Shown: piece after piece, positions 1 to 4,950 of the stretch | Layout: every line of letters starts with the position of its first letter | How positions within the stretch are numbered: position 1 is the stretch's first letter | DNA from: an uncultured bacterium | GTDB taxonomy: Bacteria > Eisenbacteria > RBG-16-71-46 | DNA: 38,115 bases | Assembly (NCBI GenBank): GCA_964554725.1 | Contig: CAZKQE010000001.1 | Coordinates: forward strand, 1 to 38,115 | Reading direction: 5' to 3' | Made by a program: the position numbers and the translations under genes | Notes under the pieces: model-generated | Databases searched by the model: none | What the model was told of the DNA's origin: nothing | Seen by the model: the letters and a program-made list of their open reading frames with translations, nothing else

Positions 1-464
1 ACGACCCGTTCGCGATGCTGCCGTTCTGCGGCTACCACATGGGCGACTACTTCGCCCACTGGCTGCGGATGGGCGCGGGCGCGGACGCGAAGAAGCTGCC
101 GCGCATGTTCCACGTCAACTGGTTCCGCAAGGACGACGCGGGGCGGTTCCTGTGGCCCGGCTACGGCGAGAACAGCCGCGTCCTCAAGTGGGTGTTCGAG
201 CGGGTCACCGGCACCGGCCAGGCGGTGGACACGGCGATCGGCCGCCTGCCCGCGCCCGGGGCGCTCGACACCTCCGGCCTGGGGATCGCCGACGCCGCGC
301 TGGCGGAGCTGCTCAAGGTGGATGTCGAGGGCTGGCTCGCCGACCTGCCGCCCATCCGGACCCACTTCGACCGGTTCGGCGACCGGCTGCCGCCGGGCCT
401 GCGCGACGAGCTGGCGGCGCTCGAGAAGCGGCTCCAGACCGCCGCGGTCGGGGCGGGGCGCTAG
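1..464 (+). CDS. pckG: Phosphoenolpyruvate carboxykinase (GTP), C-terminal fragment (5' end outside window)
   Basis: The frame is open from the window edge. The translation DPFAMLPFCGYHMGDYFAHWL...FHVNWFRKD..GRFLWPGYGENSRVLKWVFERV matches the conserved C-terminal region of GTP-dependent PEPCK. Stop TAG is at 462-464. Confidence 0.9.
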   Translation, partial: DPFAMLPFCGYHMGDYFAHWLRMGAGADAKKLPRMFHVNWFRKDDAGRFLWPGYGENSRVLKWVFERVTGTGQAVDTAIGRLPAPGALDTSGLGIADAALAELLKVDVEGWLADLPPIRTHFDRFGDRLPPGLRDELAALEKRLQTAAVGAGR

Positions 465-514
465 CGGCCGCGAGAACGGCGCGACCGGGGCGCGCGGCGG
501 CGCATCGAAGGGAT

Positions 515-1450
515 ATGACGCCAGCGCCCGGACTCGCTGCGAGATCGTCCCCCGCGGACCTGGTCCGCCACGTGGGTGACACGCCGTTGCTGCCGGTCGC
601 CGGGCTCGAGGGCGTGCCGGACGGGGTCACGGTGCTGGGGAAGGCCGAGTGGCTGAACCCCGGCGGTTCGGTGAAGGACCGCGCGGCGCGGGCGATCGTC
701 GCGGCGGCGGAGGCGCAGGGCGCGCTCGCGGGCGGTCGCCGGCTGCTCGACGCCACCTCGGGCAACACCGGGGTCGCCTACGCGTGGATCGGCGCCGCCC
801 GCGGGTTCGGCGTGACCCTGTGCGTGCCGGCGAACGCGCGCCCCGCCCGCCGCCATGCGCTGGCGGCGCTGGGGGCCGAGGTGCGGCTCACCGACGCCAT
901 GGAGGGCACCGACGGCGCGATCCGCGAGGCGCGCCGGCTCGCGGCGGCGCGGCCGGACCTCTACTTCCACGCCGACCAGTACGCGAACCCCGCGAACTGG
1001 CGCGCGCACTACGAGGGCACGGCCGAGGAGATCTGGGCGCAGACCGGAGGCCGCGTCACCCACCTGGTCGCCGGGATCGGCACCTCGGGCACGCTGGTCG
1101 GGACCGCGCGGCGCCTGCGCGAGCGGAACCCGGAGCTGGTGGCGGTCGCGGTGCAGCCGGACTCGCCGCTCCACGCGCTCGAGGGTCTCAAGCACCTGGC
1201 GAGCGCGATCAGGCCTCCGATCTACGACCCGGAGGTCCACCAGGCGACGATCGAGGTCGCGAGCGAGGAGGCGATCGCCATGGTCCGCCGCCAGGCCCGC
1301 CGCGGGCTGCTGATGGGCTGGTCGGCCGGGGCGGCGCTGGTGGCGGCCGGGCGCGTGGCGCGCGGGCTCGCGCGCGGCGTGGTGGTGGCGATCCTGCCGG
1401 ACGGCGCCGGCAGCTACCTCGACGACCCGGCGTGGCGGGAGGACGCATGA
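515..1450 (+). CDS. cysM: Cysteine synthase, CysM-like (PLP-dependent; probably uses a thiocarboxylated carrier protein as sulfur donor)
   Basis: ATG 515 is the first start codon in this frame after the pckG stop; the upstream part of ORF 152..1450 overlaps pckG and is Arg/Gly-rich junk. Motifs present: GDTPLLPV, NPGGSVKDRAA (PLP lysine), TSGNTGVAYA, GIGTSGTL. The stop overlaps the next start (ATGA 1447-1450). Confidence 0.85.
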   Translation: MTPAPGLAARSSPADLVRHVGDTPLLPVAGLEGVPDGVTVLGKAEWLNPGGSVKDRAARAIVAAAEAQGALAGGRRLLDATSGNTGVAYAWIGAARGFGVTLCVPANARPARRHALAALGAEVRLTDAMEGTDGAIREARRLAAARPDLYFHADQYANPANWRAHYEGTAEEIWAQTGGRVTHLVAGIGTSGTLVGTARRLRERNPELVAVAVQPDSPLHALEGLKHLASAIRPPIYDPEVHQATIEVASEEAIAMVRRQARRGLLMGWSAGAALVAAGRVARGLARGVVVAILPDGAGSYLDDPAWREDA

Positions 1451-1917
1451 GCCTGGTCCTCCCGGCGGCGCTCGCCGGGCCGCTCCACGACCACCTGGTC
1501 CGCGCCTACCCCGAGGAGGGCTGCGGCGTGCTGGTGGGGCGCGACGAGGGGAGCCGTCGCGTGGTCGAGCGGGTGATCCCGGTCGAGAACGCGCGCGGCG
1601 ACTCGCGCGGCCGCCGGTACGTGATCCCGCCCGAGCGCATCCTGGTCGCCGAGCGCGAGGCGCGCGAGGCGGGCCTCGACGTGGTCGGCTTCTACCACTC
1701 GCACCCGGACCACCCGGCCCGTCCCTCGGCCTTCGACCTGGAGCACGCCTGGCCGTACTATTCGTACCTGATCGTGAGCGTGGCCGCGGGCCGCGTCGCC
1801 GAGGCGCGCGCCTGGCGCCTGGCGGCCGACCGCACGCGCTTCGAGCCCGAGCGCCTGGACGCCGCGCCGGCGCGGGAGTCGCCGGGTCGCGGCGCGGCAG
1901 CGGAGATCGGCCCATGA
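1447..1917 (+). CDS. mec: JAMM/MPN+ zinc metalloprotease (Mec-like, CysO-processing/deconjugating)
   Basis: 156 aa. The JAMM signature is complete: upstream Glu in PEEGCG plus HSHPDHPARPSAFD (HxHx7Sx2D). ATGA overlaps occur at both ends (1447-1450 and 1914-1917). Its position next to cysM and a CysO-like carrier mirrors the M. tuberculosis mec-cysO-cysM locus. Confidence 0.85.
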   Translation: MSLVLPAALAGPLHDHLVRAYPEEGCGVLVGRDEGSRRVVERVIPVENARGDSRGRRYVIPPERILVAEREAREAGLDVVGFYHSHPDHPARPSAFDLEHAWPYYSYLIVSVAAGRVAEARAWRLAADRTRFEPERLDAAPARESPGRGAAAEIGP

Positions 1918-3401
1918 CGCGACGGACGAGGATCCACATCCCGACCCCGCTGCGCCCCTACGTGGAGCGGCAGGCGGTGGTCGAGGTCGAGGGCGCGACG
2001 GTCGGCGCCGCACTGGCGGCGCTGGTCGAGCGCTACGGCGACCTGCGCCGCCACCTCTACGACGGGGAGGGCCGGCTGCGGCGCTACGTCAACGTGTACC
2101 GGAACGAGGAGGACATCCGGCACCTCGAGCGCGAGGACACACCGCTCTCCGGGGCGGACTCGATCTCGATCGTGCCCAGCATCGCCGGCGGCGCCGGGCC
2201 GGAGGCGCGCGGGCGCCCCGCGCCGCCCGACTGGGCGACCGGGGCGGACGGCCTGCCGCCGCTCTCGCAGGACGAGCTGCTCCGCTACAGCCGCCACCTG
2301 ATCCTGCCCGAGGTGCGGCTCGACGGGCAGCGGCGCCTGAAGGCGGCGAGCGTGCTGGTCGTCGGGACCGGCGGGCTCGGCTCGCCGCTCGCGCTCTACC
2401 TGGCGGCGGCGGGGGTGGGGCGCATCGGACTCGTGGACTTCGACCGCGTGGACGCGAGCAACCTCCAGCGCCAGATCCTCTACGGCACCGCGAGCGTCGG
2501 CCGCCCCAAGCTCGAGGCCGCGCGCGAGCGGCTCGCCGACCTCAACCCCGGCGTGCGCGTGGACCTCCACGAGGCGCGGCTCGCGAGCGACAACGCGATG
2601 GAGATCCTGGAGCCGTACGACGTGGTCGTGGACGGCACCGACAACTTCCCCACGCGCTACCTGGTCAACGACGCCTGCACGCTGCTGGGCAAGCCGAACG
2701 TGTACGGCAGCATCTTCCGCTTCGAAGGGCAGGCGAGCGTGTTCGACGCGCGGGTGGGGCCCTGCTACCGCTGCCTCTATCCCGATCCGCCGCCCCCCGG
2801 CCTGGTGCCCTCGTGCGCGGAGGGCGGGGTGCTGGGCGTGCTGCCCGGGGTCATCGGCGTGATCCAGGGGGTCGAGACGCTCAAGCTGCTGCTCGGGGTG
2901 GGGGAGTCGCTGGTGGGGCGCCTGCTGCTGTTCGACGCGCTCGCGCTGTCGTTCCGCGAGCTGGCGCTGCGCAAGGACCCCGAGTGCCCGCTGTGCGGAC
3001 CCCGGCGCACGATCACCGCGCTGGTGGACTACGAGGCGTTCTGCGGGCTGACGCCGGTCGAGCAGGCGGAGGCGGACGCGCGCGGCTGGGAGATCTCCGT
3101 GCGCGAGCTGGAGCAGCGCCTGTCGGGAGCGGAGCCGCCGCTGGTCGTCGACGTGCGCGAGCCGCACGAATGGGAGATCGCCCGTCTGCCGGGCGCGACC
3201 CTGATCCCGCTGAACACGCTGCCGGCCCGGGTCGCCGAGCTCGACAGCAGCCGCGAGATCGTCCTCCACTGCCACCACGGCCAGCGCAGCATGCGCGCGC
3301 TCGAGTTCCTGCGCGGCGCGGGGTTCCGCAAGCTGAAGAACCTGCGCGGCGGCATCGACGCCTGGTCGAAGGAGGTGGACCGCGGGGTGCCGCGGTACTG
3401 A
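1914..3401 (+). CDS. Fusion protein: CysO/ThiS/MoaD-like sulfur carrier (aa 1-93, ends IAGG) + MoeB/ThiF-type E1 adenylyltransferase + C-terminal rhodanese (MoeZ-like)
   Basis: A single uninterrupted 495-codon ORF. The N-terminus RIHIPTPLRPY...RYVNVYRNEEDIRH...SISIVPSIAGG resembles the 93-aa CysO; the GG codons are at 2187-2192. A linker follows, then LSQDELLRYSRHLILPEV, the GTGGLGS nucleotide loop, SCAEGGVLG, and the Zn CxxC pairs CYRC and CPLC. The rhodanese module has the active loop CHHGQRS. No ATG or GTG lies between the GG codons and the E1 core. Confidence 0.85.
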   Translation: MTRRTRIHIPTPLRPYVERQAVVEVEGATVGAALAALVERYGDLRRHLYDGEGRLRRYVNVYRNEEDIRHLEREDTPLSGADSISIVPSIAGGAGPEARGRPAPPDWATGADGLPPLSQDELLRYSRHLILPEVRLDGQRRLKAASVLVVGTGGLGSPLALYLAAAGVGRIGLVDFDRVDASNLQRQILYGTASVGRPKLEAARERLADLNPGVRVDLHEARLASDNAMEILEPYDVVVDGTDNFPTRYLVNDACTLLGKPNVYGSIFRFEGQASVFDARVGPCYRCLYPDPPPPGLVPSCAEGGVLGVLPGVIGVIQGVETLKLLLGVGESLVGRLLLFDALALSFRELALRKDPECPLCGPRRTITALVDYEAFCGLTPVEQAEADARGWEISVRELEQRLSGAEPPLVVDVREPHEWEIARLPGATLIPLNTLPARVAELDSSREIVLHCHHGQRSMRALEFLRGAGFRKLKNLRGGIDAWSKEVDRGVPRY

Positions 3402-3408
3402 GCGGCGG

Positions 3409-3428
3409 CGCCGGGCGCCCGGCGGTTT
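3409..3428 (+). terminator. Weak terminator-like GC palindrome after the cys operon
   Basis: A perfect 16-bp palindrome CGCCGGGCGCCCGGCG (3409-3424; 6-bp stem, 4-nt loop as RNA) is followed by GTTT, 8 nt after the stop codon. The U tract is short. Confidence 0.25.
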
Positions 3429-3462
3429 GAGCCGGGTCCCGTTCGGCGTTAAGGTCCGGGTC

Positions 3463-4950
3463 ATGCCGCCGTGCCGGACCCCCACCGCGTGCTCCACCCC
3501 CCGCCGCCCCCGATCGCGCGCGGCCGCGGCGCTGCTCGTCCTGCTCCTCGCCGGCTGCGCGACGAACCCGGTCACCGGACGTCGCGAGTTCTCGCTCGTG
3601 AGCCCGCAGCAGGAGGCGCAGATCGGGCGCGAGGGCTATGCCGCGGTGCTGGCGGAGTACGGCGCCTACGAGGACTCGACGCTCCAGCGCTACGTGCGCG
3701 ACATCGGCCTGCGCCTGGCGAAGGTCTCCCACCAGCCCGGCCTCGACTGGCACTTCACGGTGATCGACGACCCGAGCGTGAACGCGTTCGCGATGCCGGG
3801 CGGGTACATCTACATCACGCGCGGGATCCTCGCCCATCTCAACTCGGAGGCGCAGCTCGCCGGGGTGCTGGGGCACGAGATCGCCCACGTCACCCACCGC
3901 CACAGCGCCGCCCAGATCTCCCAGCAGCAGCTCGCCGGGCTCGGGCTCGGGGTGGCCTCGCTCCTCTCGGAGTCGGTGGCGCGCTACGGGCAGGTGGCCC
4001 AGCAGGCGCTCGGGCTCATGTTCCTCAAGTACAGCCGCACCCACGAGCACGAGTCCGACGAGTCGGGCGTCCTCTACGCCACCCGGGCCGGCTACGATCC
4101 GGCCGAGATCCCCGCCACCTACGGGATGTTGAAGCGGGTGAGCGACCGCGCCGGGCAGCGGCTGCCCGGGTTCCTCTCCACCCACCCCGATCCCGGCGAC
4201 CGCGAGGCGCGCACCGCCGAGCTGGCGCGCGCCGCGCGCGCGGGCGCCGACGGGCTGGTGGTGCGGCGCGACGAGTTCCTGGCGCGGATCGACGGCATGG
4301 TGTTCGGCGACGACCCGCGCGGCGGCTACTTCGAGGGCGACACCTTCCACCACCCGGCGATGGCGTTCACGATCACGTTCCCGACCGGCTGGCAGCGCGA
4401 GAACACGCGCAGCGCGGTGACCGCGGCGGCGCCCGAGCAGCGGGCCGTGATGCAGCTCTCGCTCGCCGACGCCGACGACCTCTCGCCGGCGGACTACGTC
4501 ACCCGGCTGTCGGGCAGCGGGCGCATCGCCGGCGCGCGCGGGGCGCCCGAGCGGATCGGCGGCTTCGCCGCCTGGGTGGGCCGGGTCGCGGTCGCGGGGG
4601 AGGGGGGCACCCAGCGCGTGCTCGCCGCCGCCTTCCTGCGCCGCGGTCCCGGGCGGATGATCCAGATCCTCGGCAGCAGCGGCGTCCCGGACGACGCGGA
4701 CTTCCAGCAGGTGCTGGCCGCCGCCCGCTCGTTCCGCGCGCTCACCGACGCGGCGCGCCTGGCGCCCGTCCCCTCGCGCCTGCGCGTGAGCCGGCTCGCC
4801 GCCGCGGCGCCGTTCGCGAGCGCGCTGGCGGGCCTCGGGCCGCAGGCGCTCGACGCGGAGCGGACGGCGATCCTCAACCATCGCGCGGTGGACGAGCGCC
4901 TGCCGGCGGGGACGCCGGTGAAGACCGTGACGCCGGCCCGGACCCACTGA
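3463..4950 (+). CDS. M48-family zinc metallopeptidase, lipoprotein (BepA/LoiP-like)
   Basis: ATG 3463 is preferred over the TTG at 3427. The signal peptide ends in the lipobox LLAGC. AFAMPGGYIYITRG and the zinc motif HEIAHVTHRH (HExxH) are typical of M48 peptidases. A C-terminal domain of about 250 aa has unknown function. Confidence 0.8.
   Translation: MPPCRTPTACSTPRRPRSRAAAALLVLLLAGCATNPVTGRREFSLVSPQQEAQIGREGYAAVLAEYGAYEDSTLQRYVRDIGLRLAKVSHQPGLDWHFTVIDDPSVNAFAMPGGYIYITRGILAHLNSEAQLAGVLGHEIAHVTHRHSAAQISQQQLAGLGLGVASLLSESVARYGQVAQQALGLMFLKYSRTHEHESDESGVLYATRAGYDPAEIPATYGMLKRVSDRAGQRLPGFLSTHPDPGDREARTAELARAARAGADGLVVRRDEFLARIDGMVFGDDPRGGYFEGDTFHHPAMAFTITFPTGWQRENTRSAVTAAAPEQRAVMQLSLADADDLSPADYVTRLSGSGRIAGARGAPERIGGFAAWVGRVAVAGEGGTQRVLAAAFLRRGPGRMIQILGSSGVPDDADFQQVLAAARSFRALTDAARLAPVPSRLRVSRLAAAAPFASALAGLGPQALDAERTAILNHRAVDERLPAGTPVKTVTPARTH

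Follow-up and report, generated by a model that had tools for sequence, protein, structure and literature searches.

In Mycobacterium tuberculosis, the proteins CysM, CysO, Mec+ and MoeZR are said to carry out a thiocarboxylate-dependent synthesis of cysteine, as reportedly described by Burns et al. in 2005 and summarized in PMC3227635; in two related systems, QbsE/QbsD of thioquinolobactin synthesis and HcyS/HcyD of homocysteine synthesis in Wolinella, the residues encoded past the Gly-Gly (GG) of the sulfur carrier are trimmed by the JAMM protease of the operon before the carrier is activated by the E1 enzyme. The subject of the present analysis is an operon resembling these systems, located in a contig stretch of 38,115 nucleotides (hereafter, the window; CAZKQE010000001.1, assembly GCA_964554725.1) from an uncultured Eisenbacteria bacterium of lineage RBG-16-71-46, in which a CysO-like carrier is encoded in frame, as the N-terminus of its own E1-rhodanese enzyme, and next to a JAMM gene. 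The operon (515-3401) is composed of three co-directional genes on the forward strand, each joined to the next by an ATGA start/stop overlap; we estimate at roughly 70% the probability that it is a cysteine module of the CysM/Mec+/CysO/MoeZR kind, the carrier of which would be made on its own E1-rhodanese and cut after GG by the JAMM enzyme.

This type of operon was catalogued in 2006 by Iyer, Burroughs and Aravind (PMC1779556), whose type 4c, known to them from Solibacter, Rubrobacter, Salinibacter and Chloroflexus, comprises a ThiS/MoaD-like ubiquitin-like protein (Ubl), an E1-rhodanese, a JAB protein and a cysteine synthase; in the same study it was proposed that JAB may release fused ThiS/MoaD domains to yield a free C-terminus, and Ubl-E1 fusions common to Thaumarchaeota and bacteria have been mentioned by Makarova and Koonin (2010; PMC2948915). 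As to the protease, in PMC3227635 the M. tuberculosis homologue Mec+ is described as hydrolysing the peptide bond that follows GG in CysO-Cys, while according to PMC8832034 the JAMM protein DR0402 cleaves the natural MoaD-MoaE fusion of Deinococcus radiodurans, exposing its C-terminal Gly, and is required for molybdenum cofactor (Moco) synthesis, and HvJAMM1 and PfJAMM1 cut linear SAMP/Ubl fusions whatever follows the Ubl. A literature search, with most subscription journals outside its scope, found no experimental study of a CysO-MoeZ, ThiS-ThiF or MoaD-MoeB fusion.

The fused gene is a single open reading frame (1914-3401, forward strand) which encodes 495 residues with no stop within. Its residues 1-93 (1914-2192) form a CysO-like beta-grasp carrier of the ThiS/MoaD type ending in IAGG, as had been claimed in a previous reading of the letters alone (the sequence-only reading): the Pfam ThiS profile is matched over its full length (1-76 of 76) by residues 7-93 (E 2.6e-13), among proteins of solved structure the best match is CysO of M. 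tuberculosis (3dwg_C, E 2.4e-14), followed by Amycolatopsis CysO (4n6e_B), and residues 6-93 align with residues 4-93 of CysO in such a way that the GG at position 93 ends both. The codons of G92 and G93 occupy 2187-2192, and the frame runs for 402 residues beyond them, through a variable, low-complexity linker rich in Ala, Pro and Gly (2193-2261) and the clade-specific E1 N-terminal motif PPDWATGADGLPPLSQ, into an E1 adenylyltransferase domain of the MoeB/ThiF type (2262-2990; Pfam ThiF, residues 125-359, E 1.3e-81) and a C-terminal rhodanese, that is, a persulfide sulfurtransferase domain (3099-3371; Pfam Rhodanese, residues 396-486, E 1.5e-18), in agreement with the domain order first read from the translation. 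An internal start giving a stand-alone E1 was considered and rejected, there being no in-frame ATG, GTG or TTG from the GG codons to V134, a residue already within the E1 core; the earlier statement that neither a stop nor an internal start follows GG thus holds. As translated, the carrier does not have a free C-terminal carboxylate, and a processing step is therefore required.

In an alignment of 53 fused homologues, G92 and G93, the GxGxxG loop of the E1, Arg124/127, Asp177, the CxxC pairs C284/C287 and C358/C361, and the rhodanese residue Cys453 are all invariant. The E1 has Uba4 (6yub), ThiF (1zud) and MoeB (1jw9) as relatives of known structure, and it is matched better by the NCBIfam model of MoeB (PRK07411, 544 bits) than by that of MoeZ (PRK07878, 497 bits), both scores being below the respective cut-offs; the MoeZR subtype, as characterized in PMC3227635, carries NYRD in place of the first CxxC and is missing the second, whereas the fused E1 retains two CxxC pairs and is, by the same definition, MoeBR-like. 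Just upstream of the E1 core (2220-2261), a stretch of the form PP(A/D)WATG(A/E)DGLPP(L/M)S is conserved across the Eisenbacteria clade, the Acidobacteriota and Gemmatimonadota versions being without it; since unfused E1 genes of the same family (L105, L114, L118) retain the PPAWATGADG-type motif, it is part of the E1 rather than of the linker.

Several features of the junction support a cut after GG. The segment SIVPSIAGG is near-constant in more than 200 fused proteins, and the spacer that follows, rich in Ala, Pro and Gly, is unconserved in sequence and variable in length, the distance from GG to the RYSRH motif being 11-64 residues (median 27). Among 209 unique linkers, the residue directly after GG (P1') is Ala in 87, Ser in 54, Val in 19 and Thr in 16 (176/209); Pro, which accounts for 18.5% of the linker residues, is never found in this position (0/209; nominal P = 3e-19), as expected of a scissile bond, and Gly is likewise depleted. 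The AlphaFold2 model is confident overall, with a mean predicted local distance difference test score (pLDDT) of 87, and values below 50, indicating disorder, occur only at residues 90-101, that is, in the GG tail and at the start of the linker. On the P1' statistics and the low pLDDT, the predicted scissile bond is Gly93/Ala94, between nucleotides 2192 and 2193 (2190-2195, forward strand). Two rare atypical junctions were observed: in a Gemmatimonadaceae locus (L084) IAAGS replaces IAGG, and a weak, atypical match (…ALGGEPADD…; L165) has no JAMM or CysM nearby.

In other lineages the same operon position is occupied by a carrier encoded as a separate gene, and in 24 of 25 such split genes a tail of 1-13 residues extends past GG (GGV, GGD, GGMY, GGC, GGLS, GGGNA, GGAGNKRAR and the Cys-rich GGCCPCGCCCCPR and GGCARRCICR being examples), which implies that trimming after GG is a general requirement of the operon family; the E1 fusion would then be, judging from these sequences, the extreme form of a post-GG tail. 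Cys-rich or single-Cys tails are frequent among the split genes (L050, L060, L073, L082, L087, L066 and L035, mostly from Acidobacteriota) and include also GGRPLRCACS, GGLNLRCICR and GGSSCCR; the tail GGC mimics the carrier-Cys product which is hydrolysed by Mec+-type enzymes. A programmed stop read-through, or a recent nonsense fission, was also considered, all 20 split carriers of the first 80 loci being in the frame of the E1, but in a sample collected with the E1 alone as query this was the case for only two of five; the idea was dropped because the 20/20 result reflects a ranking bias of the tblastn-based selection of loci.

Whether the fused domain behaves as a carrier can be judged from the company it keeps. 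In the window's phylum, the E1 part alone was used as query, blind to what lies upstream, and of 201 genomes 127 gave a match, 90 loci being analysed. The carrier is present in 39 of these, fused every time, and missing from the remaining 51; an adjacent cysteine synthase was found in 35/39 carrier loci versus 0/51 carrier-less ones (Fisher 7e-21, a nominal value given that lineages are not independent), and an adjacent JAMM gene in 38/39 versus 6/51 (Fisher 8e-18, nominal for the same reason). Two of the four carrier loci without an adjacent synthase are near a contig end. Since the synthase accompanies the carrier to this extent, the carrier appears to be gained and lost together with the synthase and not with the E1; the fused beta-grasp would thus be a working carrier, tracking the enzyme that would consume its thiocarboxylate. 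Within the same genus, one locus (L092, G176:C193; protein P0105) displays an in-frame deletion of the carrier, of which the first ten residues (MTQRTKIHIP) are left, joined to the E1 N-terminal motif; in this locus the JAMM gene is retained and the cysteine synthase is gone.

The candidate maturase, and likely carrier-Cys hydrolase, is the Mec+-like metalloprotease of the JAMM/MPN+ type encoded by the second gene (1447-1917, forward strand; Pfam Prok-JAB, E 4.5e-26). Its JAMM motif is intact, with the glutamate in EEGCG and the HxHx7SxxD arrangement in the stretch HSHPDHPARPSAFD; the best match in the PDB is 2kcq_A (E 3.5e-30), and PfJAMM1 (5ld9) also matches. The stop of this gene overlaps the start of the fusion in the ATGA at 1914-1917, as anticipated by the sequence-only reading, which had described the adjoining JAMM as translationally coupled, and in the own genome (a bin of 504 contigs, 78% complete) no other Prok-JAB gene scores above the family cut-off. 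In a locus of the window's family (L107, G039:C99), the JAMM domain itself forms an in-frame fusion with the E1-rhodanese, and neither carrier nor cysteine synthase is present; this arrangement fits operon type 4b ('JAB + E1-Rhod') of Iyer et al., and from it JAMM and E1 seem to work as a physical pair. Pairs of JAMM and E1-rhodanese without a nearby carrier or cysteine synthase were observed also in L005/L006 (P0108), L112, L116, L118, L169, L190, L191 and L199, and imply that JAMM acts together with the E1 outside the cysteine pathway as well.

The own genome appears to contain a single ThiF-family E1, the fused one, and three carriers, two of which are free SAMP1/MoaD-like proteins ending in SGG-stop (contig 39, 983-1270, reverse strand; contig 484, 58-339, forward strand); MoaE is encoded as well, and a single E1 is likewise found in a Gemmatimonadales genome that encodes the fusion. 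According to PMC3227635, MoeZR acts in trans on carriers in mycobacteria. As the sole E1 found in a genome with two free carriers, the enzyme would have to act on these in trans, and once released it probably serves both free GG-ending carriers and Moco synthesis. The carrier gene of contig 39 is tightly followed by that of a BNR/glycosyl-hydrolase-like repeat protein (1-981, reverse strand; weak NF045728 match).

A mechanism can be proposed in five steps. As the sequence shows, one polypeptide of 495 residues is made, its translation being coupled to that of JAMM; JAMM would then hydrolyse the Gly93-Ala94 bond, yielding a carrier of ~10 kDa with a free Gly-Gly carboxylate and an E1-rhodanese of ~43 kDa. 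From what is known of the families, the E1, acting in trans, would adenylate the carrier thus released, and the persulfide of rhodanese Cys453 would convert it into the thiocarboxylate, which the synthase would add to its aminoacrylate intermediate; following an S-to-N shift, carrier-Gly-Gly-Cys would be formed, and a second cut after GG by the same JAMM would free cysteine and recycle the carrier. Maturation and turnover would thus be one reaction on one recognition element, and because of this a fusion, or a short tail, would be tolerated. A further, unlikely elaboration is that the protein is a zymogen-like pro-protein, in which the tethered carrier occupies or blocks the Ubl site of the apparently sole E1 and the JAMM cut is a regulated switch (responding, for example, to zinc or to the redox state) for both cysteine synthesis and the supply of E1 to the free MoaD-type carriers; if this were true, the whole of Ubl-dependent sulfur trafficking would be controlled by a single proteolytic cut, and the system would be the prokaryotic equivalent of the processing of ubiquitin precursors, with regulation as an added role.

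The fusion is not confined to the window. A search of 5.8 billion proteins retrieved more than 100 independent clusters at 90% identity, 63-85% identical to the query and with the same three Pfam domains, drawn from NCBI, ENA, JGI and Logan assemblies, and when a single genome was scanned for each species, 599 relatives were retrieved, with the fused form in 59 of the top 80 loci; the database search for the same architecture, and the inspection of the junction in assemblies of relatives, both of which the sequence-only reading had suggested, therefore show that orthologues are not always separate proteins. Fused genes occur in hundreds of genomes, among them those of Eisenbacteria, Gemmatimonadota, many orders of Acidobacteriota, Chloroflexia, Armatimonadota and others, and the fusion is the dominant form of the operon in several soil phyla; a closed Eisenbacteria chromosome of 4.16 Mb displays the synteny of the window, with genes for PALP, JAB, ThiS-ThiF-Rhodanese, M48 peptidase, cytochrome and molybdopterin-oxidoreductase. 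That the source is a fragmented metagenome bin could raise the suspicion of an assembly or sequencing artefact, that is, of a stop or frameshift lost between two genes; the same in-frame architecture across independent assemblies, closed chromosomes included, excludes such an error for practical purposes. Fused genes about 55-63% identical to that of the window were noted also on contigs binned as Thermoplasmata or as a Nitrososphaerales archaeon (among L043, L048, L052 and L079), and others in bins labelled Bifidobacteriaceae, Heliomicrobium and Chitinophagaceae, as a result of either horizontal transfer or mis-binning. Database names such as 'MoeB', 'SAMP1' and 'adenylyltransferase/sulfurtransferase' hide the carrier domain.

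The sequence-only reading held that the fusion is either inactive as a carrier or has to be cut after GG, and named JAMM as the obvious candidate protease; on the comparative evidence, a cut by JAMM is the best-supported interpretation. It has to be weighed against the possibility that the fusion is never cleaved, the beta-grasp being tethered to the E1 for good in a structural or regulatory capacity (it could, for instance, occupy the Ubl-binding site) and the two free GG-ending carriers of the genome being the real sulfur carriers. The presence of these carriers would accommodate such a scheme, and Iyer et al. argued in this sense for the Ubl-ThiF fusions of the Campylobacter type, which are found in operons with a solo ThiS (PMC1779556). 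The Ubl of those fusions, however, is described as distinct from ThiS, whereas the domain fused here resembles CysO right up to its final residue, and no solo carrier is encoded in the operon; moreover, the invariance of GG, the exclusion of Pro from P1', the gain and loss of the carrier with CysM rather than with the E1, and the separate carrier gene found in the same operon position in other lineages are all at odds with a merely structural domain, and a permanently tethered Ubl occupying the Ubl site is hard to reconcile with a sole E1 which would have to serve free carriers. We consider a permanent fusion improbable. A similarly low probability is assigned to a release of the carrier after GG by another protease, or by autocatalysis, with JAMM hydrolysing only the carrier-Cys adduct. 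Some fused loci have no adjacent JAMM gene, the protease that processes MoaX in M. tuberculosis is not named in the available portions of PMC8832034 and PMC3227635, and a conserved M48 peptidase gene (3427-4950) lies directly downstream of the operon, with the same synteny in relatives; yet the leader of this peptidase, followed by LAGC, reads as a lipoprotein-type signal, so that the enzyme would be exported, away from a cytoplasmic substrate, while JAMM, encoded next to the fused gene in 38/39 cases across the phylum and coupled to it in translation in the window, belongs to the only class shown to cut after GG of ThiS/MoaD-type proteins (PMC8832034).

Several observations weigh against cleavage by JAMM within a cysteine module. 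JAMM is equally common beside split carriers (17/20 and 5/5 loci), and its adjacency alone is therefore no proof of a role as maturase; three fused loci of Acidobacteriota have no JAMM within 1.5 kb, and in the genome of one of the three (G290) just one weak JAB match, of 32 bits, was found elsewhere. In a few fused loci the JAB gene is located elsewhere in the genome, and a search for genomes with the fusion and without any JAB gene found at least one in each of the six tested, that of G290 being the weak match. In addition, the P values given above ignore shared ancestry; the use of a thiocarboxylate by the synthase is deduced solely from gene context, this enzyme being no closer to M. tuberculosis CysM than to the sulfide-using CysK/CysM; and, according to PMC3227635, the MoeBR-like type of E1 did not accept CysO in mycobacteria. 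Taken with these reservations, cleavage by JAMM remains the interpretation to which the estimate of about 70% applies.

The first gene of the operon (515-1450, forward strand) encodes a PLP (pyridoxal phosphate) enzyme of the cysteine synthase family, CysM/CysK-like (Pfam PALP, E 3.9e-61), and its stop overlaps the JAMM start in the ATGA at 1447-1450. Its score with the NCBIfam cysM model TIGR01138 is 281.6 bits, under the cut-off of 394, and NCBIfam provides no equivalog-level name for any of the three operon proteins. In a PDB sequence search, the nearest solved structures are M. tuberculosis CysK1 (2q3b) and E. coli CysM (2bhs), with M. tuberculosis CysM (3dwi) lower; the assignment to the O-phosphoserine-specific type of M. 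tuberculosis CysM was dropped, that type not being singled out by the search, and the enzyme appears, by sequence similarity, to be a generic CysK/CysM relative, not specifically near the O-phosphoserine-dependent one. Downstream of the operon, the M48 peptidase, which has a hydrophobic leader before LAGC at its N-terminus, is followed by genes for a cytochrome c7 and a molybdopterin-oxidoreductase (Alternative Complex III), and this order is kept in relatives with or without the carrier (L005, L007, L008).

If the cut were confirmed, the protein would be the first characterized Ubl carrier that shares a polypeptide chain with its own E1 at synthesis and is freed by an enzyme of the deubiquitinase type, and the range of JAMM-matured precursors, in which GG is followed by short tails or by MoaE, would be extended to the activating enzyme; a clean and abundant bacterial model of Ubl precursor processing would also become available, complete with natural fused, short-tailed and carrier-less variants. 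Because the database names hide the carrier, metabolic reconstructions of Acidobacteriota, Gemmatimonadota and Eisenbacteria may miss a sulfide-independent, oxidation-tolerant route to cysteine.

Compared with the M. tuberculosis system, the operon encodes the same four activities, namely a PLP-dependent cysteine synthase, a GG-ending, CysO-like beta-grasp of the ThiS/MoaD type, a JAMM hydrolase with the E...HxHx7SxxD signature, and an E1 with a C-terminal rhodanese carrying its catalytic Cys; in both, the genes for the synthase, JAMM and the carrier are clustered. M. tuberculosis CysO, however, is a separate protein of 93 residues ending exactly with GG, and moeZR is unlinked, whereas in the present operon the carrier forms the N-terminal part of the E1 protein and a maturation cut would be needed before the first turnover, and the E1 has both CxxC motifs, as in MoeBR. 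With the QbsE, HcyS and MoaD-MoaE precursors the fusion shares the presence of residues encoded past the GG of the carrier, 402 in number; the tails of QbsE and HcyS are of one or two residues, while here the 'tail' is a 402-residue enzyme, and the split relatives, with tails of 1-13 residues, bridge the two conditions.

QbsD/QbsE, offered as precedent in the sequence-only reading, is retained as a related system, but a closer one exists in the cleavage of natural MoaD-MoaE fusions by JAMM, as reported in PMC8832034. In the D. radiodurans pair DR2607/DR0402 (Yang et al. 2018 and PMC8832034), in M. tuberculosis MoaX and in the HvJAMM1/SAMP1-MoaE conjugate, a carrier Ubl is likewise in frame with a partner enzyme, and it becomes active only when its C-terminal Gly has been freed by a JAMM metalloprotease; the partner there is MoaE, the downstream sulfur acceptor, whereas here it is the upstream activator, substrate and activating enzyme being joined in one pro-protein. 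An N-terminal beta-grasp on an E1 adenylation domain is found also in the Ubl-ThiF proteins of Campylobacter and Firmicutes (PMC1779556) and in the Ubl-E1-TBP proteins of Thaumarchaeota (PMC2948915). The Campylobacter-type Ubl differs in being described as distinct from ThiS and in its co-occurrence with a ThiS encoded on its own, a setting that points to a role other than that of a carrier, and JAB, rhodanese and cysteine synthase are not reported with it (PMC1779556); the fused domain of the window has a full-length ThiS/CysO match, and among the window translations no second carrier gene is found in the operon. With operon type 4c, finally, both the gene content and the phyla overlap, but the corresponding table row records no Ubl-E1 fusion, and the breadth of the fusion, its strict linkage to the synthase and the tails of the split forms are not described there (PMC1779556). 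The arrangement is neither rare nor new to databases and, the chemistry, the operon and the idea of cleavage being already in the literature, the gain is incremental; the fusion is a real, widespread and uncharacterized variant of a known system, the proposed mechanism of which had been anticipated in general terms.

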